64,000 nucleotides of DNA from contig DASZEM010000046.1 of NCBI GenBank assembly GCA_035940855.1, positions 34,805-98,804 of the forward strand. Reading direction: 5' to 3'. Position numbers and translations under genes: made by a program. The DNA is from Thermoanaerobaculia bacterium (lineage in GTDB: Bacteria > Acidobacteriota > Thermoanaerobaculia > Multivoradales > UBA5704). Below, in pieces: positions 17,482 to 54,552 of the stretch (the first letter of the stretch is position 1; each line of letters starts with the position of its first letter). The notes beneath the pieces were generated by a model. That model searched no databases. It saw only the letters and a list, made by a program, of their open reading frames with translations, and had not been told where the DNA came from.

Positions 17482-17514
17482 GAGGGACACTCCCTTGTAA
17501 GGACAGCTTGTTTC

Positions 17515-19592: not shown

Positions 19593-19926
19593 ACTTCCGC
19601 TCCTCGATTTCGATTTCCTCGCGCTTGCGCCGGGCGAACTCCTCGCTCCCGGAAGTCAACCCGCGGCCAGCCCCACGCAAACGCCGTAGACGCGTCCGGC
19701 GCTCTTCCGGTGCCAGCTCCCGGAAGGGTCTGGGATCCTGGGCCAACTCCGAGGCCAGAGCCGCGAGACGGCCACGGCCTTGCGGAGCCTCAGCCTGTCC
19801 CGCAGCCTCTGCTTCCGGCGGCACGAGCACGATCAACTCTACCGGCCCGGATGGAATCGTGGCCGGGAACTCGATGGTCGCACGGTGATCTTCCGGAACT
19901 ACGATATGAATTCTGTGTGCCTGCAT
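19582..19926 (-). CDS. Putative antitoxin partner of VapC (VapB-like)
   Basis: Start chosen at ATG 19926 (MQAHRIHIVVPEDHRATIEFPA..., RBS AAGGGAG 10 nt upstream). GTG 19980 and ATG 19962 are alternatives. Small, acidic-basic C-terminus; translationally coupled to the toxin. Confidence 0.5.
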   Translation of the reverse strand: MQAHRIHIVVPEDHRATIEFPATIPSGPVELIVLVPPEAEAAGQAEAPQGRGRLAALASELAQDPRPFRELAPEERRTRLRRLRGAGRGLTSGSEEFARRKREEIEIEERKFGR

Positions 19927-20258
19927 CGCCGGTGCTCTCCCTTCGTAGGTGAAATCTACCATAGGTGGCAGCTTCGTCACCCGGAGTGGCGAGGTCTTCG
20001 CCGGTGCGAATGGAGCTCTGCCGCCCGCGGTAATCGGCGGGACCGGGAGGTCGCCGGCCCAGAGCGCACCTCCCGGGTCATCGTATCGGTTGTCAAAGAG
20101 CCGGGCTCCGGCCAGCCTGCGCCGGACCGGCGGGTCCGTTCGTTGGATTCCCCGGTGATTTGTCTCATTTCGACCCGCGGGATTAGATTACGGGAGAGCC
20201 GTTGATTCTGTCTAGATCCCAAAGGTTGTCATTTGGCTCTGGCAAGGGTCATCTCCGG

Positions 20259-20427
20259 CATCCAATCCAGTGGCTTACGGATGGGCGGTATCCCTTTCGG
20301 ATCTCAAATCTCGTCGTTGGGGTTCAGAAGCATCGTGATCGCGGCCGGAATCCAGTGGATTCGGACTTCAATCACAATGCTTCTGGCTGGAATCCAGTGG
20401 ATTTCAAGCTCGAATCCACTGGATTTG
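20259..20427. promoter_or_regulatory. Array of four copies of the near-palindromic 13-mer AATCCA(G/C)TGGATT in a lower-GC intergenic region upstream of msrA
   Basis: Copies at 20264-20273 (partial), 20349-20361, 20391-20403 and 20413-20425 (complement orientation). Last two are only 9 bp apart, forming a composite inverted repeat. Confidence 0.4.
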
Positions 20428-20744
20428 AAGGTCAATATGAATGCTTTGAAACTTCAATTGGATCTTTCTGATCCCAATGGGGTGGACCAGGGTTGACAAA
20501 CGGAGGCTCCTTGCTGACAATGGCGCCTCTTTGCCGTAGACAGTCTTGCTTTCAGTTTGTACATCATCGCGGAGTTTCGCGAGATGGGCTCTTTGACAAT
20601 CGAATGACCGGCAGGGACGGGGGGGCGGCCGTTCCTGCCGGCCCTCCTTCTACCTCCTTCTGGCAGTTGACCAGGGGAGTAGAATGGCGGTGTGCTCCGG
20701 GCCGCAGGTCAGCGCCTGGAGGCTTCCCTCTAGGAGAGAACAGG

Positions 20745-23196: not shown

Positions 23197-23670
23197 TCAG
23201 GAAGGGGTGTCGGAGCTCAGCTCGCCTTCGAGCTCCAGGTTGCCGTCCATGTACTTCAGATTGAAGCGGAACCGGTGGATCCGCCAGGCGGTGCCGTCCT
23301 TCTCCAGGTGGAGTTCATAGCTGCCCACGAAGAACCGGGTGTACTGGCCGCTGGCGTTGGGGAGGTAGTGGGAGGCGATGCCATAGCAGAAGGCGTCGGC
23401 GCGGTCGCCGTCCAGGGTGACCCGGAAGTTCCCCGCCTGGTGGTGGACGGCCTTCAGGTGGCGCAGCCCCCGGTCCCAGCCCTCCACGATCTCCCGCGCG
23501 TCCACCTCCGCGGGCTCGGAGCCCGTCATCGAGCTCATGTCGAAGAAGACCCGCGGCGCGAAGCACGCCCGGGCCGTCGCCCAGTCCCGCGTGTCCGTGG
23601 CGATGAACAGCCGGGTGACCGTGTCGATGATGGCGTCCTTCTCGACGAGATATCGAAGCGCGTCGTCCAT
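23197..23670 (-). CDS. NTF2-like / SnoaL-like superfamily protein
   Basis: 157 aa; typical cone-fold sequence pattern (DxxxRxxIED..., W...HxxxN..V). Confidence 0.65.
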   Translation of the reverse strand: MDDALRYLVEKDAIIDTVTRLFIATDTRDWATARACFAPRVFFDMSSMTGSEPAEVDAREIVEGWDRGLRHLKAVHHQAGNFRVTLDGDRADAFCYGIASHYLPNASGQYTRFFVGSYELHLEKDGTAWRIHRFRFNLKYMDGNLELEGELSSDTPS

Positions 23671-23713
23671 GACCAGACAATATTGCGACGCCGGGGTGGC
23701 GTCAACGCTCCTG

Positions 23714-24535
23714 TTACCGAGCCAGCAGCTCGCTCAGACGGCGCGCGGTGGGGTGTTCCAGGAGCAGTGAGCAGGCCTGGTCGTCCTCGAGAAGCTTGCG
23801 TGTGAGTAATTCTCCCCAGTCGGCCTTGTGGGTCCTCATGTCACCTCGGATCTGCCGAAGCAAGTCAGATCTAGGCTGGAGCGCCCGTAGTGCCCGAATG
23901 GCGGGTGCAAGAACGTTCAGATCGGGACGCCTCTCCTGCGGATTGCCCCAACCGTGTCGTGGCCAGTCTGGGACATTCCTTCCGGCAATCCCGAGAGCAC
24001 GCCTCACCGCCTGTTCGTCCTGGGTCAACATCCCTTCGAAGACAGGCTCCATACATACAGGCAAGATCATCCCTCGCTCCAGAGGGGGTAGGCGCTGCCG
24101 GGCACCGGGAACCGGTCGCCGGGAGAGTTCCTCAAATCTTTGCCGCGCACGTTCACGCCAGAGATCCGGCAGGCAATCTGACTGGGCGAGGAACCGATAA
24201 AGATCGCAGGTCTCGACCCAGCGACAGTATTCCTCTTGCGGGTTCCACGCCGGGACGAGGTCCCAAGCGATCACCGCCATGTCAAAGGGGTCCCGGGCTA
24301 GCACCCGCGCCATGAGTTGATCGAGCCGCTCTCCCGACCCGCTCATCGGTGGGTTGGCGGGGTCCATTGCGACGAGGTGAGTTTTCGAGATAGGGACTAC
24401 AAGATCGAAACGCCGCAGACCAAGGGTCTTACCCAGGCGATCGTTCCAGAGAACCTCCAGAACCTGACGACCTCGTGCTGTGGGAGGGGACTCGCTACCT
24501 TCGGCGAAAAGAGCGAGACGCAAGTTGGAAATCAC
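23714..24535 (-). CDS. DUF4276-like protein (putative OLD/TOPRIM-like effector) partnered with upstream ATPase
   Basis: 273 aa; N-terminal LRLALFAEGSES resembles the hhhhEGxTE motif of DUF4276; 4-nt overlap with the ATPase gene; lower GC than flanks. Confidence 0.5.
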   Translation of the reverse strand: MISNLRLALFAEGSESPPTARGRQVLEVLWNDRLGKTLGLRRFDLVVPISKTHLVAMDPANPPMSGSGERLDQLMARVLARDPFDMAVIAWDLVPAWNPQEEYCRWVETCDLYRFLAQSDCLPDLWRERARQRFEELSRRPVPGARQRLPPLERGMILPVCMEPVFEGMLTQDEQAVRRALGIAGRNVPDWPRHGWGNPQERRPDLNVLAPAIRALRALQPRSDLLRQIRGDMRTHKADWGELLTRKLLEDDQACSLLLEHPTARRLSELLAR

Positions 24536-25779
24536 TCTTCGTCTTCTTCGAGATGGACGTACCGGGTACCTGCCGGGACCGAGGGATTGAAAGCGGCAAC
24601 CGCAGGCCGGGAGGCGAAGTGCTCGTACCGGGTGTCACCTTGAGTTCGTCGGACCTGCAGTATCGAATCCATGGGGACGTCGTCCAGTACCCAAGGAGAA
24701 TGAGTCGTTAGGATCACCTGAGTCCCGCGATCGGCTGCCGACTGGAGGTGCCGAAGCACGGTCCGGACTGTCCACGGATCAAGGCCATTCTCCACCTCTT
24801 CGATACAGAGGAGCGAGGGAGCAGGATCACGCGCCAAGAGGGCGAGAATGGCTGTAATTCGGCGAGTACCCTCCGAGAGCATCCAAGAGGGTATCGGAAA
24901 CTGACTCCGACCCGAGCGCCCTCGGTAAGGCATCCGTTCAAGGAGACTGTAGTTGACCCGGGTATCCCGTCCGAGTTCAGCGCGGGACACCTCCACGTCG
25001 CGAATTCCAGGGAGGATCTCTTGGAGCGCATCGACGAGGTTTGCCCTCTGGTCCGCTGTAATCTCATTCAGTAATGCAGGCAGCGACTGCCCCTCCTCAT
25101 CGAGTAGTGGCTCGAAAGACTTGCGGGTGGCTAGCGAACCATGGGATAGCCGGTTAGGGCTGAGCCGGAGAAAGACCGCGCGGGACCAGAAGCTATCGAG
25201 AAAAGCGAGTGCCGGATCAAGAAGTTGCCACTGTGAGGAACCCACCAGTCCTAGAGCCAGACGATCAGGCTCACGGATTATTCCCCAACCGTTGGATGCA
25301 CCCGTTTCAAGAGCGCGTTCCCCCGGGGAACCTGTTATGAGGTACCTCTTCAGAGGCCGACCGGACGACCGGAGAGTTGAAAGCGCCTCCTCTGCGATAA
25401 ATGGAGCGCCCTCGCGGTCTTCTACCTTGACGCGATACCGAACGGGTGGAACAGCATTGATGTCGGCAGACCATGTGAGAGTCAGCTCAAAGTAAGATTT
25501 CTCCGCCTGCGAGCGAAGGTTGATCAAGTCCCGAATACCATAGTACCGGTCAGAGGCCTCCCGCGCATCGCGTCGAAGCGTCACGTCAAGCCATTGCAGA
25601 GCTTCGAGGAGCGTGCTCTTGCCGCTGCCATTCCGTCCGATGACGACGTTAAAGGGCTTCAAGGGAATGGGAGCTGGTCTGAACGCTGCCTTAAAGCGCT
25701 GGATCTGTACCTCCGAAATCCAGCGATACACCGCTCCACCGGAGTCTTCGTCCAGATCCCGATCTTCTTTCTTATCCAT
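24532..25779 (-). CDS. ABC-type / AAA_21-like ATPase (abortive-infection-type ATPase)
   Basis: 415 aa; Walker A VIGRNGSGKSTLLEAL; ABC signature-like LSEGTRRITAILALL; Walker B LLCIEEVENGLDP; H-loop ILTTHSPWVL. Confidence 0.8.
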   Translation of the reverse strand: MDKKEDRDLDEDSGGAVYRWISEVQIQRFKAAFRPAPIPLKPFNVVIGRNGSGKSTLLEALQWLDVTLRRDAREASDRYYGIRDLINLRSQAEKSYFELTLTWSADINAVPPVRYRVKVEDREGAPFIAEEALSTLRSSGRPLKRYLITGSPGERALETGASNGWGIIREPDRLALGLVGSSQWQLLDPALAFLDSFWSRAVFLRLSPNRLSHGSLATRKSFEPLLDEEGQSLPALLNEITADQRANLVDALQEILPGIRDVEVSRAELGRDTRVNYSLLERMPYRGRSGRSQFPIPSWMLSEGTRRITAILALLARDPAPSLLCIEEVENGLDPWTVRTVLRHLQSAADRGTQVILTTHSPWVLDDVPMDSILQVRRTQGDTRYEHFASRPAVAAFNPSVPAGTRYVHLEEDEE

Positions 25780-31900: not shown

Positions 31901-32233
31901 ATGCGACACCTGCCTCCTTCTCTTCAGGAAGCGGTCCTAAGGCTGGAACAGGACCTGAAATGCCTCTACGGCGAGCGGTTCCGGGGCCTGCTCCTCTACG
32001 GATCGTACGCCCGGGGCGATGCCCGTGAAGGCAGTGACGTGGATCTCCTTCTGTTGCTCGATGGGCTGGTGAGCCCCGTCCGGGAGATCTTGTACATGGA
32101 GCCTGTGGTCTGGCCGCTTTCTCTCGAATACGACACGGTCCTTTCCGTAATGCCGGTGGACGCCGAGTCTTACCAGAAGGCCGAGTCCAGGTTCCTCCGG
32201 AACGTGCGCAAGGAAGTCGTGCCAGCGGCATGA
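31901..32233 (+). CDS. Minimal nucleotidyltransferase (MNT) antitoxin of a HEPN/MNT module
   Basis: 110 aa; GSYARGDAREGSDVDLLLLLD (NTase fold GS...D.D); ATGA overlap with the HEPN gene. Confidence 0.8.
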   Translation: MRHLPPSLQEAVLRLEQDLKCLYGERFRGLLLYGSYARGDAREGSDVDLLLLLDGLVSPVREILYMEPVVWPLSLEYDTVLSVMPVDAESYQKAESRFLRNVRKEVVPAA

Positions 32234-32606
32234 ATGATCCCGACCGCCTCCTGGAAAGGGCGAAGAAATCTCTCCTCGCGGCCGAACGCCTTCTGGCCGA
32301 CGGAGATCCTGAATTCGCGGCATCCAGGGTTTACTATTCCTATTCCACACCGCACAGGCCCTCCTCTCCTCGCGAGGGCTCGATCCCTCCCGGCATGGGC
32401 AGGTGATTGCCCAATACGGCCTTCATTTCGCCAAGACCCGGACCCTGGACCCCGTCTTCCACAACTGGATCGGCACGGCGTTCAAGCTCCGCCAGATCGC
32501 GGACTATCAGGTCGAAGTCGCGATTGAGACCGAAGCCGTCAGCGACCTGATTTCGGGCTGCCGGCAGTTCATCGCCGCCGCGGAGGAGTACCTTGCAGGG
32601 CTTTGA
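32230..32606 (+). pseudogene. HEPN-domain toxin gene disrupted by a -1 frameshift near 32343
   Basis: Frame 1 gives MNDPDRLLERAKKSLLAAERLLADGDPEFAASRVYYSY then nonsense and a stop at 32404-32406. Frame -1 continues FHTAQALLSSRGLDPSRHGQVIAQYGLHFAKTRTLDPVFHNWIGTAFKLRQIADYQ...EYLAGL. Junction TATTCCTATTCCACACC is consistent with loss of one T from TATTTCCAC. Confidence 0.7.
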
Positions 32607-32787
32607 ATCGCTTTCTCTAAATCGTGTATGTGATTGGATCAGATTTTTTTCGTTTTGATTGTCCCGCCCTTCGATCATGGAGACACTCCTAGCATAGACG
32701 CGCGCAGAGATCGGATCGTACACCCGGTCGTCAACACGGATGAGAGCTCGTGTTCGTGGGCTCTCTATCCATCACAAGGAGGAAATC

Positions 32788-32952
32788 ATGAAAAGTGGTA
32801 AATCGTCCAAGTCAGCCAAGAAGCTCAATTTGAGCAGGGAGACGATCAAAAAGCTTTCCGAGTCCGACCTGGAGGGAGTGCAGGGCGCGCAGATGAAGAC
32901 CTCCGAAACCGGCGGCAACTGCTACAGCCTCATGATCGATGGGTGCGGCTGA
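32788..32952 (+). CDS. Small precursor-like peptide (54 aa) with lysine-rich N-terminus and double-glycine-type leader (…LSESDLEGVQGA) followed by a 20-aa Cys/Ser/Thr core
   Basis: Strong RBS AAGGAGGAAATC before ATG. MKSGKSSKSAKKLNLSRETIKKLSESDLEGVQGA|QMKTSETGGNCYSLMIDGCG. AT-rich upstream region; 12-bp-stem hairpin immediately downstream. Confidence 0.45.
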   Translation: MKSGKSSKSAKKLNLSRETIKKLSESDLEGVQGAQMKTSETGGNCYSLMIDGCG

Positions 32953-32972
32953 TCGATCAGCGTTGACCGGAG

Positions 32973-33010
32973 CGGCGAGGAACCGCGGCCGAACACCAGG
33001 TTCCTCGCCG
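32973..33010 (+). terminator. GC-rich hairpin (12-bp stem CGGCGAGGAACC/GGTTCCTCGCCG, 14-nt loop) after the small peptide ORF
   Basis: Seen in sequence; no clear U-tract, so intrinsic-terminator assignment is tentative. Confidence 0.35.
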
Positions 33011-33047: not shown

Positions 33048-35168
33048 ATGAAATCCGCGCCCCTGGCTGCCCTTCTCTTCCTCTGGCCCCTCTCTTCCCT
33101 CCACGCCGCCAGCCTCGACGACGAAGTCAACGCCTTCCTCCAGGTCCCCGCCGTGGCGGGCCGGGAGGATGGGGCGGCGGATTTCATCGCCGGACGCCTC
33201 CGTGGGGCGCGGCGGGACGCGCTGGGGAACGTCGTGCTCACGGTGGGCTCCGGGGAGCCCCGGCGGCTGGTGGCGTGCGGGCTGGGAGAGCCGGGCTTCA
33301 TCGTCAGCGGCATCCGGGAGGACGGCTACCTCCGAGTCGTGCCGGCGGGAGCCGACCTCGTGGGATCGCTCTGGACGCAGTCGTTCGAGGGGCAGACCGT
33401 CATTACCGGTGGCGCCCGGGGATGGCGGGCGGGGGCCGTGGTGCTGCCGTCGGTCCACCTGGGGGGCGCCGGACGCGAGCGCCCCTTCTCCGTGGAAGAC
33501 CTCTACGTCGACGTGGGAGCGGAGAGCGCCGCCGAGGTGGCGGAGATGGGGATCCGCCTCATGGACCCCGTGGCGCTGGTCCGCCGGCCGTCGAAGCTCG
33601 CGGGCGGACTCGTGGCCGCTCCGGCCGCCGCGGTCAAAGGGGCCTGCGTGGCCCTGGCCGACGCGGCCCGGCGATATCTTGCGGGATACCAGGCGGGAAA
33701 TCGGCCCGGAGAAGGCACGGTCGTGTTCGCCTGGGCCACCTCCGACCTGCTCAACCGGTCCGGGCTCCAGCACGTGCTCGACCAGCGGGGGCCGTTCCGG
33801 GAGGCAATCTTGCTCGACGCCGGCTTCGGCTGGGAGGAGGTCAAGGATGGAAATCCCATCCCCAAGCCGCTCCCCGCGCCCGGCTCCGGCCTCATCGGCG
33901 ACGGCAATCTCCCGGCTTCCCTGGCTCGGATCGCGAAGGCTCCCCACATCGAAGGCGGTCTGGAAACCGGGGACACTCGCGTGGGCTATCTCGGCCTCGC
34001 CGCCCGCTATCCCGGAACGCCCGTGGAGACAGTCTCCCTCCGCGACGTGAAGGCGCTTTCGGATGCCATCCTGACCGCGCTGGGGAGCAAGACCGGAACG
34101 GAGGAGGCCGTTCCCTCTCTGCCCGCCCCGCCGGAGATCGCCGAGACGGGCGAAGGGCACGAGGAGGTGGCCCGCCTTCTGGGCTCTCTGATCGCCCGCT
34201 ACGGCGTGAGCGGCGCCGAGGGGCCAGTGCGCGAGGAGGTGCTGCGCAGCCTGCCGGCCTGGGCGAAGCCGGAGACGGACGAGAAAGGGAACGTCACCGT
34301 GACCGTGGGGAGCGGCGGCGAGCCGGTCCTCTTCGTGTCCCACATGGACGAGGTCGGCTTCCGCGTCCAGGAAGTGCTGGCGGACGGACGGCTGCGGCTC
34401 CAGAACCGCGGCGGCGTCCTGCCTCAGGCCTGGGAGGCTCAGGCGGCCCTGGTCCACGGCGACCGGGGAGCCGTGCCGGCCGTGTTCGAGCCGCGCGAGG
34501 ACTGGTGGACCGCCGAAAAGTCGGGCCTCGCCAAGCCCCTGACCGTCTATCTCGGCGTCTCCTCCCCGAAGGAGGCCGAAGCGCTGGGCATCCGCGCCGG
34601 GAGCACGGTCACCATGCCCAAGCGCATGCTGCGCATCGGCCGCCACCGCGTCCTCGCCCGGAGCTTCGACGACCGGATAGGCTCGACGGCCCTGCTGCTG
34701 GCCCTGCGGCGGATCGATCCCGCGAAGCTTCGGCGCCGCGTGACCTTCGCCTGGTCCGTCGAGGAGGAAGTCGGCCTGGACGGCTCCAAGGTCCTCGCCC
34801 AGCGGCTGCGGGACGTGCGGGAGGTCCACCCCGTGGACACCTTCGTCTCCTCGGACTCGCCGATCGAATCGAAACGGTTCGCCGACGCCCGGCTGGGCCA
34901 GGGGCCCGTGATCCGGGCCATGGACAACGGCTATCTGGCGCCCCGCCCCCTGATCGACCGCTTCCGGGCTCTGGCGGAGCGCAACGGCATCCCCATCCAG
35001 ATCGGTTTCACGGGCGGCGCCACGGACGGCATGGCGTTCCTGCCCAACGGCCCCGCCATGCTCCCCTTCTCCTGGCCGGGCCGGTACTCGCACTCCCCCA
35101 TTGAGGTGGCGGACCTGCGGGACGCCGAAGCGCTGGTGAGGCTGGTCGTGGCGGTCGCGACGGAGTAA
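33048..35168 (+). CDS. Secreted tandem M42-family metallopeptidase (two FrvX/glutamyl-aminopeptidase-like domains)
   Basis: 706 aa; signal peptide; two repeats of the M42 architecture (…LFVSHMDEVGF…, …DRIGSTALLLALRR…, …GGATDG…). Confidence 0.75.
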   Translation: MKSAPLAALLFLWPLSSLHAASLDDEVNAFLQVPAVAGREDGAADFIAGRLRGARRDALGNVVLTVGSGEPRRLVACGLGEPGFIVSGIREDGYLRVVPAGADLVGSLWTQSFEGQTVITGGARGWRAGAVVLPSVHLGGAGRERPFSVEDLYVDVGAESAAEVAEMGIRLMDPVALVRRPSKLAGGLVAAPAAAVKGACVALADAARRYLAGYQAGNRPGEGTVVFAWATSDLLNRSGLQHVLDQRGPFREAILLDAGFGWEEVKDGNPIPKPLPAPGSGLIGDGNLPASLARIAKAPHIEGGLETGDTRVGYLGLAARYPGTPVETVSLRDVKALSDAILTALGSKTGTEEAVPSLPAPPEIAETGEGHEEVARLLGSLIARYGVSGAEGPVREEVLRSLPAWAKPETDEKGNVTVTVGSGGEPVLFVSHMDEVGFRVQEVLADGRLRLQNRGGVLPQAWEAQAALVHGDRGAVPAVFEPREDWWTAEKSGLAKPLTVYLGVSSPKEAEALGIRAGSTVTMPKRMLRIGRHRVLARSFDDRIGSTALLLALRRIDPAKLRRRVTFAWSVEEEVGLDGSKVLAQRLRDVREVHPVDTFVSSDSPIESKRFADARLGQGPVIRAMDNGYLAPRPLIDRFRALAERNGIPIQIGFTGGATDGMAFLPNGPAMLPFSWPGRYSHSPIEVADLRDAEALVRLVVAVATE

Positions 35169-35189: not shown

Positions 35190-35378
35190 TCAGTCCGCCC
35201 CGCAGATCGCCACGCATCGGCAGCCACCCGTGGTCGTCGGGCAGCAATCCCCCGCGCACTTCTGGCAGAAGGTCACGGTGCAACCCTCGAGCTCAGCTTC
35301 AGCCGGTTGTGGAGCAAAGCCATAAACCAGGATGACGAGAACGGCGCAGGAGCCCAGGAAAGTCCAAACGCGCTTCAT
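35190..35378 (-). CDS. Secreted cysteine-rich mini-protein (62 aa precursor, ~34-aa mature peptide, 8 Cys)
   Basis: RBS AAAGGA 6 nt upstream; signal peptide MKRVWTFLGSCAVLVILVYGFAPQPAEA; mature ELEGCTVTFCQKCAGDCCPTTTGGCRCVAICGAD (C-x4-C-x2-C-x3-CC...). Confidence 0.55.
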   Translation of the reverse strand: MKRVWTFLGSCAVLVILVYGFAPQPAEAELEGCTVTFCQKCAGDCCPTTTGGCRCVAICGAD

Positions 35379-35466
35379 GATCTGTCCTTTCTGGAGTGGC
35401 AGGTTGGGGCGGAGTCATTCTGCACTTGCTGAATATACCACGGGCGGTTCTGGACTGTGCTCCCGG

Positions 35467-41471: not shown

Positions 41472-44400
41472 CTACCCGCCCCCCGTCACCCGCAGCACGG
41501 CGTTGGCGAGGCGGCCCAGAAGCGCCCCGACCTCCGGGAATTGGGTGGCGACGAGGCCCAGGGCGGGGATGCCCACGTAGGTGAAGATCTTCGTCCAGAA
41601 GGTGCGGTCGAAGCTCACCTTGCCGGGCGTGGTCTCGCCGATGCGGCTCAGCGTGGCGTTACGGTCCATCTGGAGGAAGACGAGGAGCGTCAGCCCCACG
41701 GCCGCGGCCAGGGCGAGCACGACGGCCAGGCTCACGAACTGCTTGGGCTGGAACACGTAGGCCGTCACCCCCACCAGGGCGAAGAGGCCGCAGATCAGGG
41801 CGCCGATCAGGCAGCACCGCATGTGGGCGAAGACGTAGCGCAGCCAGGCCGACACCCGCAGGGCGAAGAACTGCAGCACGTCGGGCTCGCCGCCGTGCCG
41901 GCGCAGGTCGATGCAGGCCTGGCGGAAGATCTCTTCCAGGTGGTTGCGGGCCGCGATCTCCTGGGGCGAGCCGTCGTCCCGCTCGTTGGCGAAGACCTCC
42001 TTCAGCCGCTCGTCCAGGGCTTCGGGACCGCCAGGGATGGCGACCTTGCCTGCCGCGGCCAGGGCTTTGAGCCGGCGCACGGAGACGGTGGGCGTCTTGA
42101 ACGGCGGGAGCTGCCAGCTGAAGGACTGGATGGGCCGCCATTCGAGGTCCTTGGCGATCGCCTTGAACGCATCCGCCACCTCGGCCGAGGCGTTGTCCAG
42201 CCGGCGCAGGAGACGCGACGTCCACCGCCAGAGCAGGAAGAAGCGGAAGTAGGAGAGGGCCCCCAGAGAGAGCGCCAGGGTGACGAAGAGGATGAACAGG
42301 CGGCCGTACCCCCGGGCCTCCCCCACCGGCAGCACCGTGGCCCACAGCAGGAAGACGGGCGGCAGGAAGGCCACGGCGGGCAGGAACCAGAACCGCCGGT
42401 CCTCCGGGAAGGTACGGATGAGCAGGGCACGGACGGCCTTGAGGATGGGATCGACCCCCGCGACCGCCGGGTCGCCCAGGTTCTCCACCGGGCAGTCCGT
42501 GGACTGGCGGGCGATCAGCCGGCGGCGCTTGAGCTCCCACAGGATCCAGGCGTAGACGGCGCCGCCCACGGCCGCGAGCGAGACCAGGGGCGAGAGCCCC
42601 GAGGAGAATGCCCGCGCCCGCAGATGGAAGAACTCGACCTGCCGGCCCGGCACGCAGAGCCCCCAGACGATGGCGCCCAGGACCACCAGGGCCGCCACGC
42701 CGGCCAGGGCCCAGGCGAGCCCCTGGACCCGCGTGACCCGGCCGTGGGCCGACCGGGCGGTGTTCGCGACCAGCAGGGCGTAGACGGCGGCCAGCCCCGC
42801 GAGATAGAGGATCTGCGCCGTCTCCCAGCGCACCCCCAGCCGGCCGAGCGAAAGGTAGCGGGCCCACAGCGGCATGCTGCCCACGGCCAGGAGCATCCCC
42901 GCCGCCAGGGCAAGGAGGATCAAGCCCAGCACCAGCAGGCGGCGGCTGCCGGGGGTCGGATCCAGGGGCAAGCCCGGCACGGGTGTCACCAGTGCGGCCC
43001 GGCGCAGCAGGTAGCCGAGCGCCACGAGCCCCAGGGCCACGAGCAGCATCTGGAGGTCGTCCTTGCCGGCGAAGCCGTTGCCTTCCATTTCGGCCCGGCT
43101 GTCCGGGTCCACCGGGTTGCCGCAGAGCCGGGCCGCCAGGTGGCCTCCCGGCACCGGCAGGCGCGCCACCGGCCAGAGCGAGCCATTGCCCACGGCCGTG
43201 ATCCAGGCACGGGGCCGGGACACGTTGGTCTCCCCCAGGAGGTAGCGCACCGCCTCGTAATCCCCCTGCTGGAGCTCGCTCGTGGACTGCCGCCTCTCCC
43301 GCCCCCCCTCGCTCCGCAGCGAGCCCGCGAGCCAGGGCGCTCCCTCGGTGAACAGGGGCGCGCTGGTGAAGACCAGCATGCCGTCCAGCGTCTCCGCGTA
43401 TTGGGGATGGGCGAAGAGCAGGTCGTTGTCGAAGGTGAAGAGAACGGTGTCGGGAGCGGCCTCCCGCACCTTCTCGGCCAGGAAGAGCTTGTCCTTGGGA
43501 TCGGTGGCCACGATGCCCACGGCCTGGACGCCCTCCCGGGCGAGCGTCTCGAGCAGGTTCTGGAGCATCAGCTCGTTGCTGCGCAGCGTCAGCTCGTTGA
43601 AGGTGGGGACGAGGTCCGGCGGCCGGTCGGGGTCGGTGAGATCGATGTCGAGCAGCCGGCGGCCCGCGGGGAGCGGAGCACTGGCGGCGTTCTTCTCCTC
43701 TTTGCCCTTCTCCGCCTGGGCGGCGTTGCGCAGCTCCGAGATGTGGCTGGGGAACGGCACCATGATGAGCCGGGGATGCTTGTGCTCCTCCTCGTCGCCG
43801 GAGGTCTCGGCCTTGAGCACGCTGCTGCCGTAGGCCGTGTCGGACTCGGTGAGCAGGGCCACGCGGGAGAGGTCCCAGCCCATCTCGTCTCTCAGGAAGG
43901 GCAGGGCCAGCTCTTGAAGCACGCCGTCCGGCACCACGGTGCGGCAGAACTCGACCCCCATCTCTTCGAAGACCGGTTCGAGCGCCTGCGCCGTGGCCGA
44001 GCCCGAGGCCGCCCGGAAGTGCAGGAGCGGGCGCGGGGGCACGCCCCGGTGCTCCTGCTCCCAGGTCTTCCAGCCGCCCATGGCCACCCGCAGCGACTCG
44101 ACGGATCCCGAAAAAGACGGCCCCAGGATGCTCACCTGGGCGCCTTCCGGCTCCGCGGCGTCCTCGTTGCCCTCAGTGCTCTCAGGCAGGGGTTGAAGGT
44201 CGGCGATCAGGTCCAGGGCCTCGCGGAAGGCGTCCTTCTGGAGCCCGGCCTTGGGCGTCTCCCCGACCAGGAAGACCAGGGCCAGCGTGCGGGTGCCATC
44301 CGCCCACTGCTTGCGGAAGAGGAGGAGGCCTGGAGACCCCTGCGCCGCGGCCTCGCGCTTCGCGCCCTCTCCCGTCCAGGGCAGCCAGACGCGGTCCACG

Positions 44401-44759
44401 AGCCAGCCCGACTGGGCGAAGCCCCTCTGGAGGGCGTCGAGGGCCTGGTCGAGCCGGGGGTCCGGCGGCACGGGCACCAGGGCCATCAGGAAGCGCATCT
44501 CGTAGCCCGCCCGCGCCGCCGCCTCCCCCACTCCGGCGGGCTCCGCCGTGCCGGGCGGCAGGCCGAAGAACTCTCCCAGCACGCGGAGGATCTCGCACCG
44601 TGGTCCCGGGCAAGGCGAGGACGCCTCCGTCCGCGGGGACGGCTTGGATTGGGACGCCGTGGTGGGCGCCTTGTCCGGCACGGCGATCCGCGCCGCCGGG
44701 TAGCCCACCATCAGCCCCGCGATCAGGAGCAGCCAGGGCGGAGCCTTCCTCATGGCCAT
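41472..44759 (-). CDS. Large (1095 aa) hypothetical membrane protein: signal peptide, periplasmic-binding-protein-like N-terminal domain, then ~10 TM helices
   Basis: Coherent long ORF with the hydrophobicity pattern of a real membrane protein; no recognisable catalytic motif. Confidence 0.55.
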   Translation of the reverse strand: MAMRKAPPWLLLIAGLMVGYPAARIAVPDKAPTTASQSKPSPRTEASSPCPGPRCEILRVLGEFFGLPPGTAEPAGVGEAAARAGYEMRFLMALVPVPPDPRLDQALDALQRGFAQSGWLVDRVWLPWTGEGAKREAAAQGSPGLLLFRKQWADGTRTLALVFLVGETPKAGLQKDAFREALDLIADLQPLPESTEGNEDAAEPEGAQVSILGPSFSGSVESLRVAMGGWKTWEQEHRGVPPRPLLHFRAASGSATAQALEPVFEEMGVEFCRTVVPDGVLQELALPFLRDEMGWDLSRVALLTESDTAYGSSVLKAETSGDEEEHKHPRLIMVPFPSHISELRNAAQAEKGKEEKNAASAPLPAGRRLLDIDLTDPDRPPDLVPTFNELTLRSNELMLQNLLETLAREGVQAVGIVATDPKDKLFLAEKVREAAPDTVLFTFDNDLLFAHPQYAETLDGMLVFTSAPLFTEGAPWLAGSLRSEGGRERRQSTSELQQGDYEAVRYLLGETNVSRPRAWITAVGNGSLWPVARLPVPGGHLAARLCGNPVDPDSRAEMEGNGFAGKDDLQMLLVALGLVALGYLLRRAALVTPVPGLPLDPTPGSRRLLVLGLILLALAAGMLLAVGSMPLWARYLSLGRLGVRWETAQILYLAGLAAVYALLVANTARSAHGRVTRVQGLAWALAGVAALVVLGAIVWGLCVPGRQVEFFHLRARAFSSGLSPLVSLAAVGGAVYAWILWELKRRRLIARQSTDCPVENLGDPAVAGVDPILKAVRALLIRTFPEDRRFWFLPAVAFLPPVFLLWATVLPVGEARGYGRLFILFVTLALSLGALSYFRFFLLWRWTSRLLRRLDNASAEVADAFKAIAKDLEWRPIQSFSWQLPPFKTPTVSVRRLKALAAAGKVAIPGGPEALDERLKEVFANERDDGSPQEIAARNHLEEIFRQACIDLRRHGGEPDVLQFFALRVSAWLRYVFAHMRCCLIGALICGLFALVGVTAYVFQPKQFVSLAVVLALAAAVGLTLLVFLQMDRNATLSRIGETTPGKVSFDRTFWTKIFTYVGIPALGLVATQFPEVGALLGRLANAVLRVTGGG

Positions 44760-46163: not shown

Positions 46164-47447
46164 CTATTCGTACCGAAGCGCCTCGATGGGATCGAGCGCC
46201 GCGGCCCGCGAGGCGGGATAGATCCCGGAAGCGAGCCCCACGGTCATGGCCACCCCGGTCGAGAGGAGGATGGAGGCGCCCGTGACGATCGTCTCCCAGC
46301 CCGCGTAGGCCGCCACGCCCCGGGCCAGGCCGAGCCCGGCCACGATGCCGGCCACGCCGCCAATCACGCTGATGGCGAACGACTCCACGATGAACTGGAA
46401 GCGGATGTCGCGGCTCCGGGCGCCCACGGCCCGGCGGACGCCGATCTCCCGCGTGCGCTCGAGCACCGTGGCCAGCATGATGTTCATGATGCCGATGCCG
46501 CCCACGAGGAGGGAGATGCCGGCGATGGCCCCCATGACCACGTTGAACAGCCGCTGCGTGCGCCGGCTCTCGGCCAGCAGGGCCTCGGGCACCACCAGCT
46601 CGTAGTCCTGCGCCCCGCCGTGCAGCCGGTCGAGCAGGTCGCGCATCACCGAGGAGGACTCCTGGCCGCTCACGCCGTCCTTCAGCCGGACGACGATTTC
46701 ATCCAGGGGCGAGGCCAGGTCCGGGTGCTCGAACTTGCGGTCGGCCGTGGAGAGCGGCAGGTAGATCTCGCGGCTCGCGGCGACGCCCACACCCGCGGTT
46801 GCCGCGGCGGCATCCCCCTCCCCTCCGCCGGCCTTGCCCGTGGCGCTCTTCGCCGGGGCGGCGTCCGCGCCGGCGAGCACACCGACCACCTCCAGCCAGA
46901 CGTCGTTGATCTTGACCAGCTTGCCCAGGGCCGGGCCGTAGCCGAAGAGGTCGCGTCGCACGGCCGGGCCGATGACGCAGACCTGCGCGTGCGTGGCCTC
47001 GTCCATGGGATCGAGGAAGCGCCCCTCGGCCAGGGCCAGGTGGGCGAGCCCGGCGTAGACGGGCGTGACGCCGTAGACGGCCGTGCCGTCGGCCTTGCCC
47101 GTGGGCGAGAGCACCTTGTAGGGATCGACGCGGATGCGCGGGGCCACCAGATCGACGCCGGGCACGGCCTCGGTGAGGGCCGCGGCGTCGCGCTGGGAGA
47201 CGCCCAGCGAGGTCTGACGGATCTCCTGGAGCTCGTCGTCCTTGAACGTCTTGGCCCGCACGAGGACGTTGCGCAGGCCGAGCCGCTCGATGGACGCCAG
47301 CGCCTGGCGCTCGGCCCCGGCGCCGATCGACATCATGGCGATCACGGCGCCCACGCCGAAGATCATGCCGAGCATGGTGAGCGCCGAGCGCAGCTTGTGG
47401 GCCGCGAGGTTGTCGAGGGCCGAGCGGAAGGCTTCCCGGGGAGTCAT
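46164..47447 (-). CDS. ABC-transporter permease, FtsX/MacB/DevC type
   Basis: 427 aa; MacB_PCD-like periplasmic domain; C-terminal FtsX 4-TM domain. Confidence 0.85.
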   Translation of the reverse strand: MTPREAFRSALDNLAAHKLRSALTMLGMIFGVGAVIAMMSIGAGAERQALASIERLGLRNVLVRAKTFKDDELQEIRQTSLGVSQRDAAALTEAVPGVDLVAPRIRVDPYKVLSPTGKADGTAVYGVTPVYAGLAHLALAEGRFLDPMDEATHAQVCVIGPAVRRDLFGYGPALGKLVKINDVWLEVVGVLAGADAAPAKSATGKAGGGEGDAAAATAGVGVAASREIYLPLSTADRKFEHPDLASPLDEIVVRLKDGVSGQESSSVMRDLLDRLHGGAQDYELVVPEALLAESRRTQRLFNVVMGAIAGISLLVGGIGIMNIMLATVLERTREIGVRRAVGARSRDIRFQFIVESFAISVIGGVAGIVAGLGLARGVAAYAGWETIVTGASILLSTGVAMTVGLASGIYPASRAAALDPIEALRYE

Positions 47448-48730
47448 CGGATGGTGATCATCACCCGCTGGCCGGAGCGCCGGGCGGGAGAGGCCGGCGG
47501 CGGCTTCGGAGGCTTGACCTCGGGTGTGCCCGCCGGCCGCGTGGGGTCGCGCATGGCCAGCACGTCCCCCTTCTGGATCCCCGATTCCACGACCACCCGG
47601 CCCATGGTGGAGGGCCCGAGCTTCACCGCGACGGGCTCGAAGCCGCCCCCCGCCTTGCGGCGGAAGACGACCGTGCGGCCCTCGCGGTCGAACACGGCCT
47701 GGCGCGGCGCGAGGAGGGCGTCCTTCTTCTCGTCGAGGCGGAGCACGGCCTGCACGCGCTGGCCTGGCTTCATCACCCGGGGGTCCGTCTTGTCGAGGGC
47801 CAGGGTGACGGCGAAGTACTGCACGGGCGAGCCGGGCACGCGCGGCTTGGCGAGCGCGTCCACGCGGGCGATGCGCGCCGGGTAGGAGACCCCGGGCGCG
47901 GACTCGACCGTGAGCGTGGCCGGCCGGCCCGGCTTCAGGCCTCCGGCGTCGGCCTCCAGCACGTAGACTTCAGCCTCCATGGTGGAGAGGTCCGGGATCT
48001 CGGCCAGCGGCTGGCCGTTCCACACGTTGTCGCCCACGCGGGTCGTCTCGCCCCGCCAATTGCGCTTGAGGATGAGCACGCCGTCGTGGGGCGCCGTCAC
48101 CGACAGGGCCTGGAGCCCCTGGCGGGCCTGCTGGATCTTGGCGTCCGCCTGGCGAACCTTGATTTGCAGCAGGGCGACCTCCGTGCCCGAGAGCCGCTGG
48201 CGCGTGCGTTGCGCGGCCTCGGCGTGGACCTCCCGCTCCCGGGCGAGCTCCTGGTCGATGTCGGACTCGATGATCTCGCTCTTCGAGAAGATGAGCGCGT
48301 CCTTCTTCTGGAACTGCCGGGCGTTCTCGACCTCGATCCGCGCCATGGCCGCGTCGCGCTCCAGCTTGCGCACCTCGGAGAGGCCATCGATCTGCTCCTT
48401 CTCCATCTTCAGCCGGGCTTCCCGGAGGTCGTCCCCGGCGTCGATGAGCCGCTTCTCGATGGCGCTCGGATCGAAGCGGATGACGACGTCTCCCTGCTTC
48501 ACCCGCGAGCCGTCCGGGGCCACCCAGCCGATGCGGAACGGCCCCGGCACGCCGGGCGGGACGGCGATGGGGGTCGCGCGCACGGCCTGCAGGTTCCCCT
48601 GGGCCGGCACCTGCCGCACGAAGTCCTGGGGCTCGACCTTCACCACCGGCACGTCGCCTTCGCTGGAGCGGGCCGCGGGCAGGAACGCCCCGAGAGCCAC
48701 GAGCAGCACGGCCACCGCGGCCAGGGCCAT
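47444..48730 (-). CDS. HlyD-family periplasmic adaptor, paralog 1
   Basis: Start MALAAVAVLLVALGAF (ATG 48730); TM anchor, coiled-coil, beta-barrel/lipoyl segments; ATGA overlap with the permease. Confidence 0.75.
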   Translation of the reverse strand: MALAAVAVLLVALGAFLPAARSSEGDVPVVKVEPQDFVRQVPAQGNLQAVRATPIAVPPGVPGPFRIGWVAPDGSRVKQGDVVIRFDPSAIEKRLIDAGDDLREARLKMEKEQIDGLSEVRKLERDAAMARIEVENARQFQKKDALIFSKSEIIESDIDQELAREREVHAEAAQRTRQRLSGTEVALLQIKVRQADAKIQQARQGLQALSVTAPHDGVLILKRNWRGETTRVGDNVWNGQPLAEIPDLSTMEAEVYVLEADAGGLKPGRPATLTVESAPGVSYPARIARVDALAKPRVPGSPVQYFAVTLALDKTDPRVMKPGQRVQAVLRLDEKKDALLAPRQAVFDREGRTVVFRRKAGGGFEPVAVKLGPSTMGRVVVESGIQKGDVLAMRDPTRPAGTPEVKPPKPPPASPARRSGQRVMITIR

Positions 48731-48747
48731 CAGCACGCGGGAGAGCC

Positions 48748-49989
48748 TCACCGGTCCTCCTCCGCCAAGTCGCGTTGGGAGATCTTGTCCCCCGGGGAAA
48801 GACCCTTCCGGATCTCGACCAGCCGCTCGTTGCGCCGCCCGAGCACGGGCCGCACCTCTTCCGTGCCCCAACCCTCGCGCCGGTAGACCACCGGCCCGTC
48901 CAGCCGGTTGAACACGGCGTCGGCCGGGGCCACCAGGGCCTTGGCGACCCGCTCGATCTCCACCGTGCCCGTGAAGCGCATGCCGGGACGCATGCGCTGG
49001 GAATCGGTGCGGTCGAGATCGATCTCCAGCTTGACGACCTTCAAGGGGTTGATCTCCGACTTGTTCCGGACGGCGCCGCCGATCGAGCGCACCCGGCCCG
49101 TGAACATGTCGTCCGGATGGGCGTCGAGCCGCAGCGTCACGCGCTGGCCCACGGCCACGCGCCCGGCGTCGGCCTCGTCGATCTCACCTTCAGCTTTCAT
49201 CGTGCGCAGATCCGGGATCTCGAGGATCGACTGCCCGCGCCACGCCGAGTCGCCCACCTTCTTCTTCTCGCCCTGGCCGGTGTCCACGTAGACCACCGTG
49301 CCGTCCCGAGGGGCGGTCACGGTCATGCGGCGGATGGCTTCCTCCATCTCCCGCACGCGGGCGGCGGCGCGGTCGCGCCGGTTCGTCAGGGCCCCGAGCT
49401 CGGAAGCCGCCTGGAGCTTCTGGAGGCGCGATTTTTCCTTGAGGTACTTGATCTCGCGGACGGCCAGCGCCAGCTCCTCGCGCGACTTGGCGAGCTCCTT
49501 GGAGGCCACGAGGTCGGCCGGCACGTCCACCTTGAGCCGGGCCTTGCGTTCCCGGGCCTCGGCCTCGGCCAGCTCCAACTCGGCGTCGCGGCGGGAGATC
49601 TCCAGGTTCGTCTGGCGCTTCTCGAGCTCCTTCTGGGCCGAGTCGCGCTCGGCCTGCTTGTCGAGCAGCTCGCGCTCCAGCTCCGAGGTGTCGAACCCCA
49701 GAACGGGCTCGCCGGCCCGCACCTGCGCTCCCTCGGGCGCCATGAAGGCGATCTTGTAGTCCCAGACCTCCTGGATCTGGGGCGGGCCGATGCGCACCGA
49801 CTGCACCGAGGCGAGCGTGCCCGAGACGGGCGCGCCGATCACCAGGTCCTCCCGCCGCACCTCGGTCCAGCCCCCGGCGGCCGTGGCCGAGGCCCGGCCC
49901 GCCACCAACCAGAGGACGAGGCCGACGAGGATCAGGAGCGCCCCGCCGCTCGCGGCCATGCGGGCCATCCTCCGGCGCCGGGGACTCAT
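48748..49989 (-). CDS. HlyD-family periplasmic adaptor, paralog 2
   Basis: Start MSPRRRRMARMAASGGALLILVGLVLWLV (ATG 49989); same architecture. Confidence 0.75.
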   Translation of the reverse strand: MSPRRRRMARMAASGGALLILVGLVLWLVAGRASATAAGGWTEVRREDLVIGAPVSGTLASVQSVRIGPPQIQEVWDYKIAFMAPEGAQVRAGEPVLGFDTSELERELLDKQAERDSAQKELEKRQTNLEISRRDAELELAEAEARERKARLKVDVPADLVASKELAKSREELALAVREIKYLKEKSRLQKLQAASELGALTNRRDRAAARVREMEEAIRRMTVTAPRDGTVVYVDTGQGEKKKVGDSAWRGQSILEIPDLRTMKAEGEIDEADAGRVAVGQRVTLRLDAHPDDMFTGRVRSIGGAVRNKSEINPLKVVKLEIDLDRTDSQRMRPGMRFTGTVEIERVAKALVAPADAVFNRLDGPVVYRREGWGTEEVRPVLGRRNERLVEIRKGLSPGDKISQRDLAEEDR

Positions 49990-51212
49990 CCTGTCCTCCC
50001 GTCTCGAGTCCGGAGGCGCGTCCCGTCCTTCAGGCCGCTCTCGACCAGGCACTCCTCGGCCGCGCACGGGCCGAGCCGCACGTCCGCGGCGCCGCCGCCG
50101 GCCAGGAGCGCCCGCGTGCGGCCGCCCGAGAAGTCCAGGGCCGCCCGCGGCACGAGCAGAGCGTTCTTCATCTCCGGCCCCAGCACCTCGACCCGCACCG
50201 ACATGCCTGGGCGCATGCGCCGCGAGTCGGATTTGTCGAGGGCGATCCGCACGGGGAAGTAGCGCAGCAGGGGGCTCCGCTTCGACTCGCGGGCCACGGG
50301 CGAGATCTCCGCCACCCGGCCGCGGTAGGCCGCCGTGGGATAGGCGTCGAGGGTGCAGAGCACCTCCATACCCGGGGCGATGCGGCCGTCGTCCACGTCG
50401 GAAAGGCTGGCCTGGACGATCATGGAGGAGAGGTCCGGCAGCGTCGCGACCGTCATCCCCACCCACACGGAATCACCCAACTGGAGCTTGCGGCCCTCCC
50501 ACGGATGGTCGGCCACGAGCACCATGCCGTCCCGGGGGGCCTTGAGGGTGAGGGCTGTGATCGCCTCCTCGGCATCGCGGATCTCGCGGTGCGACTTGTC
50601 GAGGGAGATCCCCTGGATCTGGAGGTCCGTGGCGCCCCCCTTCTTCTGGGCCGCGAGGTCCTCCTGGGCCTTGGCGAGCTCGGACTCGGCGCGCTTCAGG
50701 GCGAGCTGGCGCTCCTGGTACTCACGCAGCGAGAGGAGGTCCTTGGGGATGGCTGCCGCGAGCCGGGCCTTCTCGAGCTCCGACTTCGCCTTCTCCACCG
50801 CGAACTGCTTGTCGGCCAGCGTGGTCTTCGACTCGGCCTGGGCGCGCTCCAGGTCGCTCCCCGCGTTCGAGGCGGTGAGGCGCTTCTCTTCGAGATCGGA
50901 GGCGAACTGCGAGTTGTCGAACGCCACCACGGGATCGCCCGCCCGGACCAGCGTGCCGTCCTCGGCCATCCAGCGGATCTGGAGCTGAAACTGGTTCGTG
51001 CGCGGCACCGTCAGTGCCTCGCCCTTCTCCGCCGCCAGCTCGCCCGTGAGCAGCACCCGCTGGCGGAACGTGCCGCGGTGGACGGCGAGCTCATCCTCCC
51101 CCTGCCCGGCGTCGGCGCGCGCGCCCGTCCCGGAGCACCCCGCGAGGGGCGCCAGGCAGGCCAGGCCCGCGACGAGGACAACAAGAGCGAGGATCGGTCT
51201 CAATCCAGTCAT
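49986..51212 (-). CDS. HlyD-family periplasmic adaptor, paralog 3
   Basis: Start MTGLRPILALVVLVAGLACLAPLAGC (ATG 51212, RBS GAAGGA); ATGA overlap with paralog 2. Confidence 0.75.
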   Translation of the reverse strand: MTGLRPILALVVLVAGLACLAPLAGCSGTGARADAGQGEDELAVHRGTFRQRVLLTGELAAEKGEALTVPRTNQFQLQIRWMAEDGTLVRAGDPVVAFDNSQFASDLEEKRLTASNAGSDLERAQAESKTTLADKQFAVEKAKSELEKARLAAAIPKDLLSLREYQERQLALKRAESELAKAQEDLAAQKKGGATDLQIQGISLDKSHREIRDAEEAITALTLKAPRDGMVLVADHPWEGRKLQLGDSVWVGMTVATLPDLSSMIVQASLSDVDDGRIAPGMEVLCTLDAYPTAAYRGRVAEISPVARESKRSPLLRYFPVRIALDKSDSRRMRPGMSVRVEVLGPEMKNALLVPRAALDFSGGRTRALLAGGGAADVRLGPCAAEECLVESGLKDGTRLRTRDGRTG

Positions 51213-51332
51213 TCCTTCAATAGGAACGTATACGGCAGGAGCGTATTCCTGTCCAGAGGGCGAACCCGCCCCCCTCACGTCCCCATCCCTATAGATACGG
51301 ATGAGGGCCGAAAGGTTCCTCAGTCCCCGGCC

Positions 51333-54078: not shown

Positions 54079-54255
54079 TCAGTCCTTGACGCACTTGCAG
54101 CAGTCCGGGGGCGTCAGCTTCGGGTGCTGGCCCGTCGGGCAGGCCTCGCAACGGACGAGCGAGCAGTCCACCTGCTGCGCCGTGGCAGGAACCGAAAGCT
54201 GAGTGACGCCCAGGGCGCCGGCGAAGGCGAGACCCGCGAGAAGCATTCTCTTCAC
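54079..54255 (-). CDS. Secreted cysteine-rich mini-protein (58 aa precursor; ~32-aa mature peptide with 6 Cys)
   Basis: GTG 54255 with RBS AGGAG 6 nt upstream; signal MKRMLLAGLAFAGALGVTQLSVPATA; mature QQVDCSLVRCEACPTGQHPKLTPPDCCKCVKD (C-x4-C-x2-C...CC-x-C). Confidence 0.5.
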   Translation of the reverse strand: MKRMLLAGLAFAGALGVTQLSVPATAQQVDCSLVRCEACPTGQHPKLTPPDCCKCVKD

Positions 54256-54348
54256 AATGTGCTCCTTCTGTTGAAACCCGGCAGGAGCCTCCATGGTCCC
54301 CTGCCGCGGAAAGAAACGGCGGCACAGCCGCCATCCCCTCACGAACTT

Positions 54349-54390
54349 GAAAAAAGACCGCCGGCCGCACCGTTCGGCGGTGCGGCCGGC
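54349..54390 (-). terminator. Rho-independent terminator (13-bp GC stem, TTCGG loop, T-run TCTTTTTT on the minus strand) downstream of the galE-like gene
   Basis: Stem 54360-54372 / 54378-54390; A-run 54349-54355 on the plus strand. Confidence 0.6.
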
Positions 54391-54552
54391 CGGTTGAATA
54401 GGAGAGAGAGGGAGTGATGAACCCTCGCTCTCGGGGGAGCTGTGTTGGGGGATGCTGCGCTGGTGCTGCTACAACCCCGTGGCCGGGAGCGAACGGTCCC
54501 CGGCGCACGACTCAAGAAGTGCGGCAAGGATTGAAAAGCGGGACACTCCCCA

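Follow-up and report, generated by a model that had tools for sequence, protein, structure and literature searches.

In animals, plants and fungi, much work has been done on small secreted peptides rich in cysteine, which include toxins, defence peptides and hormones. To our knowledge, few peptides of this kind are known from bacteria, and these are mainly the heat-stable (ST) enterotoxins and the recently described bacterial defensins. The Escherichia coli enterotoxins STa and STb are Sec-exported pre-pro-peptides that are oxidised by DsbA in the periplasm and released by TolC-type pumps. The bacterial cis-defensins (cysteine-stabilised alpha/beta, CS-alpha/beta) comprise five classes of secreted cysteine-rich peptides from Gram-negative soil bacteria, with one member from Acidobacteria (PMC11561630). 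Here, a stretch of 64,000 nucleotides (nt) of contig DASZEM010000046.1 from a Thermoanaerobaculia bacterium, referred to as the window, was analysed for two small genes, pep1 and pep2, each predicted to encode a secreted cysteine-rich peptide. The evidence gives good support to pep1 as a real, conserved small gene belonging to a rare, unannotated family of secreted mini-proteins with eight cysteines. The second gene, pep2, is also real and belongs to a separate, much larger Thermoanaerobaculia-specific family of domains with six cysteines.

The gene pep1 (Table 1) was found as the original prediction had described it, namely as a 62-amino-acid (aa) open reading frame (ORF) with a ribosome-binding site (RBS), a signal-like N-terminus and eight cysteines. 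The frame opens at the first start codon past an in-frame stop. Its N-terminus runs from MKR through an uncharged hydrophobic stretch to PQPAEA, with alanines at positions -3 and -1, from which cleavage after Ala28 is predicted. The resulting mature part would be ELEGCTVTFCQKCAGDCCPTTTGGCRCVAICGAD, which contains 24% cysteine, CxxC, CC and CxC motifs and one aromatic residue. A lipoprotein site at LGSC within the signal was considered and rejected, as its cysteine is missing in the homolog P0002 and a cut at this site would make the new N-terminus hydrophobic. Only pep1 and pep2, two of the 1813 candidate small ORFs of the window, passed a crude filter for a signal peptide plus a cysteine-rich mature part (basic N-terminus, hydrophobic core, AxA-like site, and a remainder with at least four cysteines and at least 10% cysteine). 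An Rfam scan of the pep1 locus returned no RNA family.

Homologs of pep1 were sought by searching proteins, by running HMMER in full against 1.84 billion representatives and by scanning metagenomes at the DNA level. With the window copy included, the family comprises seven independent loci (the named homologs being P0002, P0019, P0017, P0020, L036 and L037) that show 46-81% identity and form two subfamilies. Subfamily A (62-64 aa) is found in the window, L002 and L034, and subfamily B (54 aa) in L033, L036 and L037, with a long form of 106 aa in L035 (P0020) that carries a long Ala/Pro/Gln spacer after the signal. The pattern C-[ST]x-TF-C-xK-C-Axx-CC-PTxTGG-C-x-C is common to all members, so that the cysteine framework C-x4-C-x2-C-x3-CC-x6-C-x-C plus an eighth cysteine is kept at all seven loci. 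The eighth cysteine lies at +4 in subfamily A (C-x-C-x3-C) and at +1 in subfamily B (C-x-CC); the total is always eight, and this constancy while the last cysteine shifts fits obligatory pairing. Homologs with a conserved cysteine pattern and conservation of the ORF in a syntenic region, both of which the original prediction had looked to, were thus found, the latter in a farmland metagenome (L034) where pep1 is flanked by the same lipoprotein (87% aa identity) and M42 peptidase (88% aa identity) genes as in the window. Scans of GTDB genomes with subfamily-A patterns and of viral contigs for pep1 gave no match, and literature searches returned no description of peptides of the pep1 or pep2 type.

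The closest homolog, in L002, is identical to the window copy at 33 of the 34 mature residues at a synonymous divergence (dS) of about 0.8. The mature part differs by 12 synonymous and 2 non-synonymous changes, giving a ratio of non-synonymous to synonymous divergence (dN/dS) of 0.03, and the signal peptide, with a dN/dS of 0.61, has diverged faster. Judged from this substitution pattern, pep1 is under purifying selection. The ORF could in principle be a chance, unexpressed open frame in GC-rich DNA, a reading to which two observations lend themselves: the G+C content at third codon positions (GC3) of pep1 is 0.73, below the 0.89-0.93 of neighbouring genes (overall G+C of pep1, 63%), and the Logan gene caller did not call it. 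However, homologs retain the eight cysteines at 46-81% identity, almost all substitutions relative to L002 are synonymous, and both the RBS and an upstream motif are conserved. The ORF is therefore more than chance, and an open frame of that kind is very unlikely.

This motif, 19 nt long and reading GTGGTAYRTTCAGYAWRTG, contains the extended -10-like element TGGTATATT and is kept in the upstream region of pep1 at three loci (window, L034 and L002). The RBS, GAAAGGA, is invariant across the same three loci, and both elements are kept in L002 despite its otherwise unrelated flanks. Taken together, the findings make pep1 appear to be a self-contained unit about 300 bp long, and we infer that the motif acts as its own promoter. 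A generic sigma-70 promoter and terminator scan at pep1 returned no full promoter and no terminator. The motif occurs once within the window and was absent from the remainder of it and from the region upstream of pep2, so there is no sign of co-regulation.

On balance, and with modest confidence, pep1 would encode a Sec-exported, probably disulfide-folded, stand-alone accessory mini-protein acting extracytoplasmically. The gene would be transcribed from its conserved extended -10-like element and translated from the ATG behind the conserved GAAAGGA; the 62-aa precursor would pass through Sec and be cleaved by signal peptidase I after Ala-Glu-Ala. Once in the periplasm, the 34-aa product would take on a compact fold, most probably with four disulfide bonds, and would most likely be a ligand of some target outside the cytoplasm, with a toxin-like, inhibitor-like or signalling role. 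We infer export by Sec, a cut after AEA and oxidative folding with four disulfides from the even cysteine count despite the shifted position, from the strong conservation of residues other than cysteine relative to L002 and from the disulfide machinery of the vitamin K epoxide reductase (VKOR) type reported in some Acidobacteria (PMC4555120). AlphaFold2 modelling on the alignment of mature sequences gave a best model with a helix (residues 7-11) followed by a beta-hairpin (strands 16-19 and 25-28) at a predicted local distance difference test (pLDDT) score of 75.

Several observations weigh against this reading. An even-cysteine bias in the exported proteins of these genomes, judged with a crude signal-peptide heuristic, gave a Fisher p of 0.2. 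No route for pep1 across the outer membrane is evident, and the length of its hydrophobic core, 19 residues in the window copy, makes a membrane-anchored form conceivable. With a net charge of -2 the mature part is acidic, which sets it apart from the usual membrane-active antimicrobial peptides and argues against such an activity. In comparison with the syntenic L034 copy, 9 of the 34 mature residues differ (dN/dS 0.78), all of them outside the cysteines and the central core, which indicates uneven constraint outside the cysteine core. The best structural model is moderate, the other four are poor (pLDDT 45-63), and a Foldseek search of the model against the PDB found no match.

As the even-cysteine result is inconclusive, metal coordination stays the main rival: pep1 would be a periplasmic metal-binding peptide whose cysteine thiolates coordinate Zn, Cu, Cd or similar metals rather than forming disulfides. 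The high cysteine content, the CxxC, CC and CxC motifs, the single aromatic residue and the acidic charge recall metallothioneins and zinc-ribbon knuckles, and a zinc-ribbon-like CxxC-x(8-25)-CxxC pattern is present in subfamily B and in pep2, the latter with a knuckle-like CxxCPxG motif. Moreover, the type strains of Thermoanaerobaculia are anaerobes, and the even-cysteine test leaves disulfide formation in this host presumed. However, subfamily A, including the window copy, has no second CxxC and does not fit the pattern, the cysteine count remains even while one position moves, and the residues other than cysteine are almost fully kept relative to L002, unlike in metallothioneins. The known bacterial metallothioneins are cytoplasmic, whereas pep1 bears a signal; no metallothionein of the SmtA/BmtA type was matched in Pfam or NCBIfam, and no genes for metal resistance or metal transport occur in the three genomic contexts. 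Metal binding is, for these reasons, unlikely, if still worth serious attention, and the disulfide-folded peptide is the reading carried forward.

Among the described systems, the E. coli enterotoxins STa and STb resemble pep1 in several respects: a small precursor with a Sec signal, a C-terminal cysteine-rich core, no maturase within 10 kb and a stand-alone accessory gene. In P0020, as in the enterotoxins, a long spacer precedes a short C-terminal cysteine-rich core. A pump of the MacB/HlyD type is encoded in the window, not adjacent to pep1. The differences are that pep1 has eight rather than six cysteines and that it comes from a soil Acidobacteriota, which implies no animal target. Membership of the ST family was rejected, as there is no Pfam Enterotoxin_ST match and the CC-x2-CC-x3-C-x2-C core is missing from pep1; by analogy, the resemblance would lie in the way of working, not in family membership. 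As regards the exporter-like genes themselves, the minus strand at 46164-51278 carries a MacB-type permease gene followed by three HlyD-like adaptor ORFs (two of which overlap as listed), a set that looks like a tripartite exporter; pep2 is 3 kb and pep1 11 kb away, with no link shown to either.

The bacterial cis-defensins are also similar to pep1 in their signal peptide, cysteine richness and size, and pep1 contains CxxxC and CxC elements and is modelled as a helix followed by a hairpin. However, the CS-alpha-beta pattern CX(2,18)CX(3)CX(2,12)CX(4,17)CXC (PMC11561630) fails for all pep1 members and for pep2, and Foldseek found no defensin for the pep1 model in the PDB. The knottin (inhibitor cystine knot) spacing CX3-7CX3-8CX0-7CX1-4CX4-13C is likewise absent from pep1. 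Neither the precursor nor the mature part matched Pfam (E <= 1 and E <= 10) or NCBIfam, and a PDB sequence search with the family profile returned nothing.

The pep1 product could also be the precursor of a ribosomally synthesised and post-translationally modified peptide (RiPP) of the lanthipeptide or ranthipeptide type, its core being cross-linked by a maturase encoded elsewhere. The core holds eight cysteines and 5-10 Ser plus Thr residues, P0020 has a long N-terminal extension ahead of the core, and in L033 a gene for a 52-aa peptide with a lanthipeptide-leader domain (Lant_leader_dom, PF28317; 5476-5634) lies 4.4 kb from the subfamily-B gene, with no synthetase within 10 kb. However, the N-terminus of pep1 is of the classical Sec type (basic n-region, hydrophobic core, AxA) and not a hydrophilic leader, and it diverges faster than the core, the opposite of what a recognition leader would do. 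Radical-SAM, LanB/C/M/KC and YcaO genes are absent within 10 kb in both the window and L033, where the list around P0017 also holds no maturase, ATP-binding cassette (ABC) exporter or immunity-like gene, and the genomic context differs between loci. As pep1 is rare, patchy and without partner genes, it would be neither a RiPP nor part of a classical bacteriocin cassette, and the RiPP reading is highly improbable.

The window lies on a 374-kb JGI metagenome contig (Ga0334906_000011, sample 3300037503) and has a G+C content of 69%. The affiliation with Acidobacteriota proposed earlier agrees with the relatives of its genes, which are those of Thermoanaerobaculia metagenome-assembled genomes (MAGs), and genes around pep2 show 77-92% protein identity to them. 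Within 10 kb of pep1 are genes for a sigma-54 activator with an FHA domain, a 310-aa lipoprotein, urocanase, a large histidine kinase and a nucleotidyltransferase, together with small ORFs and a convergent M42 aminopeptidase gene. Radical-SAM, LanB/C/M/KC and YcaO genes, ABC exporters and any obvious immunity gene are all missing from the list of genes within 10 kb on either side, in agreement with the earlier statement that no transporter or maturase is adjacent; the lack of an immunity gene argues against a classical bacteriocin. Nothing in this neighbourhood favours a bacteriocin, signalling or metal-binding role. The subfamily-B gene has a PhdYeFM/PIN toxin-antitoxin pair on one side and a DNA ligase gene on the other, L002 provides a third context, and no neighbour is common to all contexts. 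Rarity, patchy context and lower G+C suggest that pep1 is a mobile accessory gene.

The M42 gene (33048-35168, plus strand) encodes a 706-aa protein with two M42 stretches and a signal-like N-terminus, an unusual combination, and is convergent with pep1 at a distance of 21 nt. Many small disulfide-rich peptides are protease inhibitors, and pep1 could accordingly be a small disulfide-rich inhibitor or partner of this secreted tandem aminopeptidase, the adjacency being kept in the window and L034. However, it is not conserved beyond these two loci: the surroundings of the closest homolog (L002) and of every subfamily-B gene are unrelated and contain no M42 gene, and the two genes are convergent and not co-transcribed. 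Such a partnership appears improbable.

In contrast to pep1, pep2-type domains are common and occupy a fixed syntenic position. The mature part of pep2, QQVDCSLVRCEACPTGQHPKLTPPDCCKCVKD, contains six cysteines in the arrangement C-x4-C-x2-C-x12-CC-x-C. An identical 58-aa protein from a Thermoanaerobaculia MAG is held by NCBI (HEV2856747.1), and the family comprises 14 protein clusters and 30 loci in Thermoanaerobaculia, Holophagales and other Acidobacteriota MAGs. The single-domain gene keeps one position across at least 13 genomes, where it lies downstream of a gene for an NAD-dependent epimerase, with a GerMN-domain gene, folA and thyA convergent on the opposite strand. The framework C-x4-C-x2-C-P-x-G-x10-CC-x-C occurs 62 times in the collected loci; DCSLVRC is invariant in the positional orthologs, and the CPxG-to-CC stretch varies. 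Between the epimerase gene and pep2, a GC-rich hairpin with a T-run looks like an intrinsic terminator, and a similar element is present in L004, L009 and L011; pep2 is therefore probably its own transcription unit.

The family extends to tandem arrays and lipoproteins. Up to six small genes lie in tandem between the epimerase and GerMN genes (L021, 1202-2998), with six domains in L008 and four in L007, and these arrays combine conserved signal peptides with a variable CPxG-CC loop. In L015-L030, one or two copies of the domain follow long Gly/Thr-rich linkers in lipoproteins with a LALCAC lipobox (for instance L020, 6825-7124, and L018, 9644-10225), whose genes occupy a conserved spot between NUDIX hydrolase and flavin amine oxidase genes, neighbours that give no functional hint. 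No DUF1111 match was found in Pfam at E <= 1 or E <= 10, so that the name "CxxC motif-containing protein (DUF1111 family)", which JGI gave to a 71-aa call of pep2 (54079-54291), seems to be an artefact of annotation. Pfam and NCBIfam scans, which also covered a two-domain lipoprotein, gave nothing, and PDB sequence matches reached TNFR10B at an E of about 1. The AlphaFold2 model of pep2 (pLDDT 68) has a C-terminal hairpin carrying C-x-C, and when it was compared with disulfide-stapled beta-hairpin modules of eukaryotes, the best matches (follistatin-like FS, furin-like/TNFR and granulin) were non-significant, the Foldseek hits against the PDB standing at E = 6-10 only. With its arrays and lipoproteins, the pep2 family is arguably a richer lead than pep1.

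The original prediction had taken pep1 and pep2 for members of one small family with a shared cysteine framework. The framework is shared in part: C-x4-C-x2-C and a later C-x-C are common to both, but the CC pairs differ in position, following x3 in pep1 and x12 in pep2, and profile tests are marginal. Common ancestry with a shared fold and later divergence has several points in its favour. Both peptides have an MKR-type signal and a mature part of about 32-34 aa that opens with C-x4-C-x2-C (CS in several members) and ends in a cysteine cluster with C-x-C-V, both models finish in a beta-hairpin bearing C-x-C, and both come from Thermoanaerobaculia-like genomes. Alignment of the full precursors with hhalign gave P = 8e-4 at a probability of 25%, a value that owes partly to the signal-peptide end. 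When the columns of the pep1 alignment were permuted, 2.7% of trials attained the observed score (P = 0.027), and the spacing of the first three cysteines would be shared by chance with P = 0.015; for any shared run of three cysteine spacings, the permutation value is P = 0.27.

However, a hidden Markov model (HMM) of 58 unique pep2 domains, run against all ORFs with hmmsearch --max, recovered no pep1 ORF among the matches listed up to E = 1000 except that of L035 at E = 420. With the mature parts only, hhalign gave P = 0.06 and a probability of 0.9%, and larger alignments P = 0.053. The best alignment pairs the first three cysteines and the final C-x-C and leaves unaligned the two CC pairs, on which the original prediction had put weight, and a change from six to eight cysteines through an adjacent CC cannot simply add one disulfide. 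The pep2 framework C-x4-C-x2-C-P-x-G-x(about 10)-CC-x-C was unmatched by all six pep1-family sequences, with which only C-x4-C-x2-C is common. The 1.84 billion representatives yielded only pep1-type matches and no intermediates, and no promoter motif is common to the two genes. A single family is thus not demonstrable, and common ancestry is doubtful, although it deserves some weight. The two peptides clearly have their architecture and host clade in common, and they differ in cysteine number, in the loop and in their distribution, pep1 being rare and apparently mobile. The pep2 family is accordingly analogous to that of pep1, evolving separately, and not a demonstrable relative.

Table 1. Coordinates of the features of pep1 and pep2 in the window.
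Feature	Position	Strand	Remarks
pep1 coding sequence, 62-aa precursor	35190..35378	minus	stop codon 35190-35192; exact protein called "hypothetical protein" by JGI
pep1 predicted mature peptide, 34 aa, 8 Cys	35193..35294	minus	C-x4-C-x2-C-x3-CC-x6-C-x-C-x3-C
pep1 predicted Sec-type signal peptide, residues 1-28	35295..35378	minus	read from sequence
pep1 ribosome-binding site GAAAGGA	35385..35391	minus	6 nt upstream of ATG; read from sequence
Conserved promoter-like motif GTGGTATATTCAGCAAGTG (extended -10-like, TGGTATATT)	35423..35441	minus	upstream of pep1
pep2 coding sequence, 58-aa precursor, GTG start	54079..54255	minus	predicted 32-aa mature part, 6 Cys
pep2 ribosome-binding site AAGGAG	54262..54267	minus	6 nt upstream of GTG; conserved in orthologous loci
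GC-rich hairpin followed by a T-run	54350..54393	minus	between epimerase gene and pep2; putative terminator, read from sequence

Other features of the window were recorded alongside these genes. Stretches of lower G+C (58-63%, against 69% overall) occur at 18000-20500, 23500-25500 and 32000-33000 and may be accessory insertions; the last of these, immediately upstream of the M42 gene, contains small ORFs as well as a nucleotidyltransferase gene (NTP_transf_2). On the minus strand at 8323-15209, a row of four paralogous genes codes for proteins of 506-588 aa that have signal-like N-termini, 27-41% mutual identity, a common N-terminal IDVRVVNVE motif and no Pfam match at 1e-5. At 15352-17490 (minus) there is a gene for a tyrosinase or polyphenol-oxidase-like protein with a C-terminal DUF7868, adjoining a separate DUF7868 protein, and at 41472-44759 (minus) a 1095-aa protein with a signal-like N-terminus and 10 cysteines has no Pfam match.

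The expectation that standard gene callers would miss these peptides was borne out in part. The Logan contig L039 matches the window with 100% identity along 5121 bp and contains the identical pep1 ORF at 3470-3658, where its gene table lists nothing; however, both genes were called by JGI/IMG and pep2 is present in NCBI. The absence of pep1 from the Logan gene table on an identical contig indicates that its family is probably under-counted in protein databases, and the fact that one of two annotation pipelines missed it may contribute to the under-sampling of such peptides. As it stands, pep1 represents a well-supported hypothetical gene family and not a new mechanism. A broader and rather unlikely proposal is that pep1 and the pep2-type domain form two branches of an Acidobacteriota-specific repertoire of genetically encoded, Sec-exported, disulfide-knotted mini-proteins for extracellular antagonism or signalling in soil. 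If this were true, they would be bacterial counterparts of the toxin-like or hormone-like peptides of animals and plants, and the tandem arrays with variable loops would supply target diversity. If an activity were found, peptides of 30-35 residues would offer compact, genetically encodable scaffolds. That a single uncultured and little-studied soil lineage contains two unannotated cysteine-rich peptide families, one rare and apparently mobile (pep1) and the other expanded (pep2), is a further indication that secreted cysteine-rich peptides are under-sampled in bacteria.

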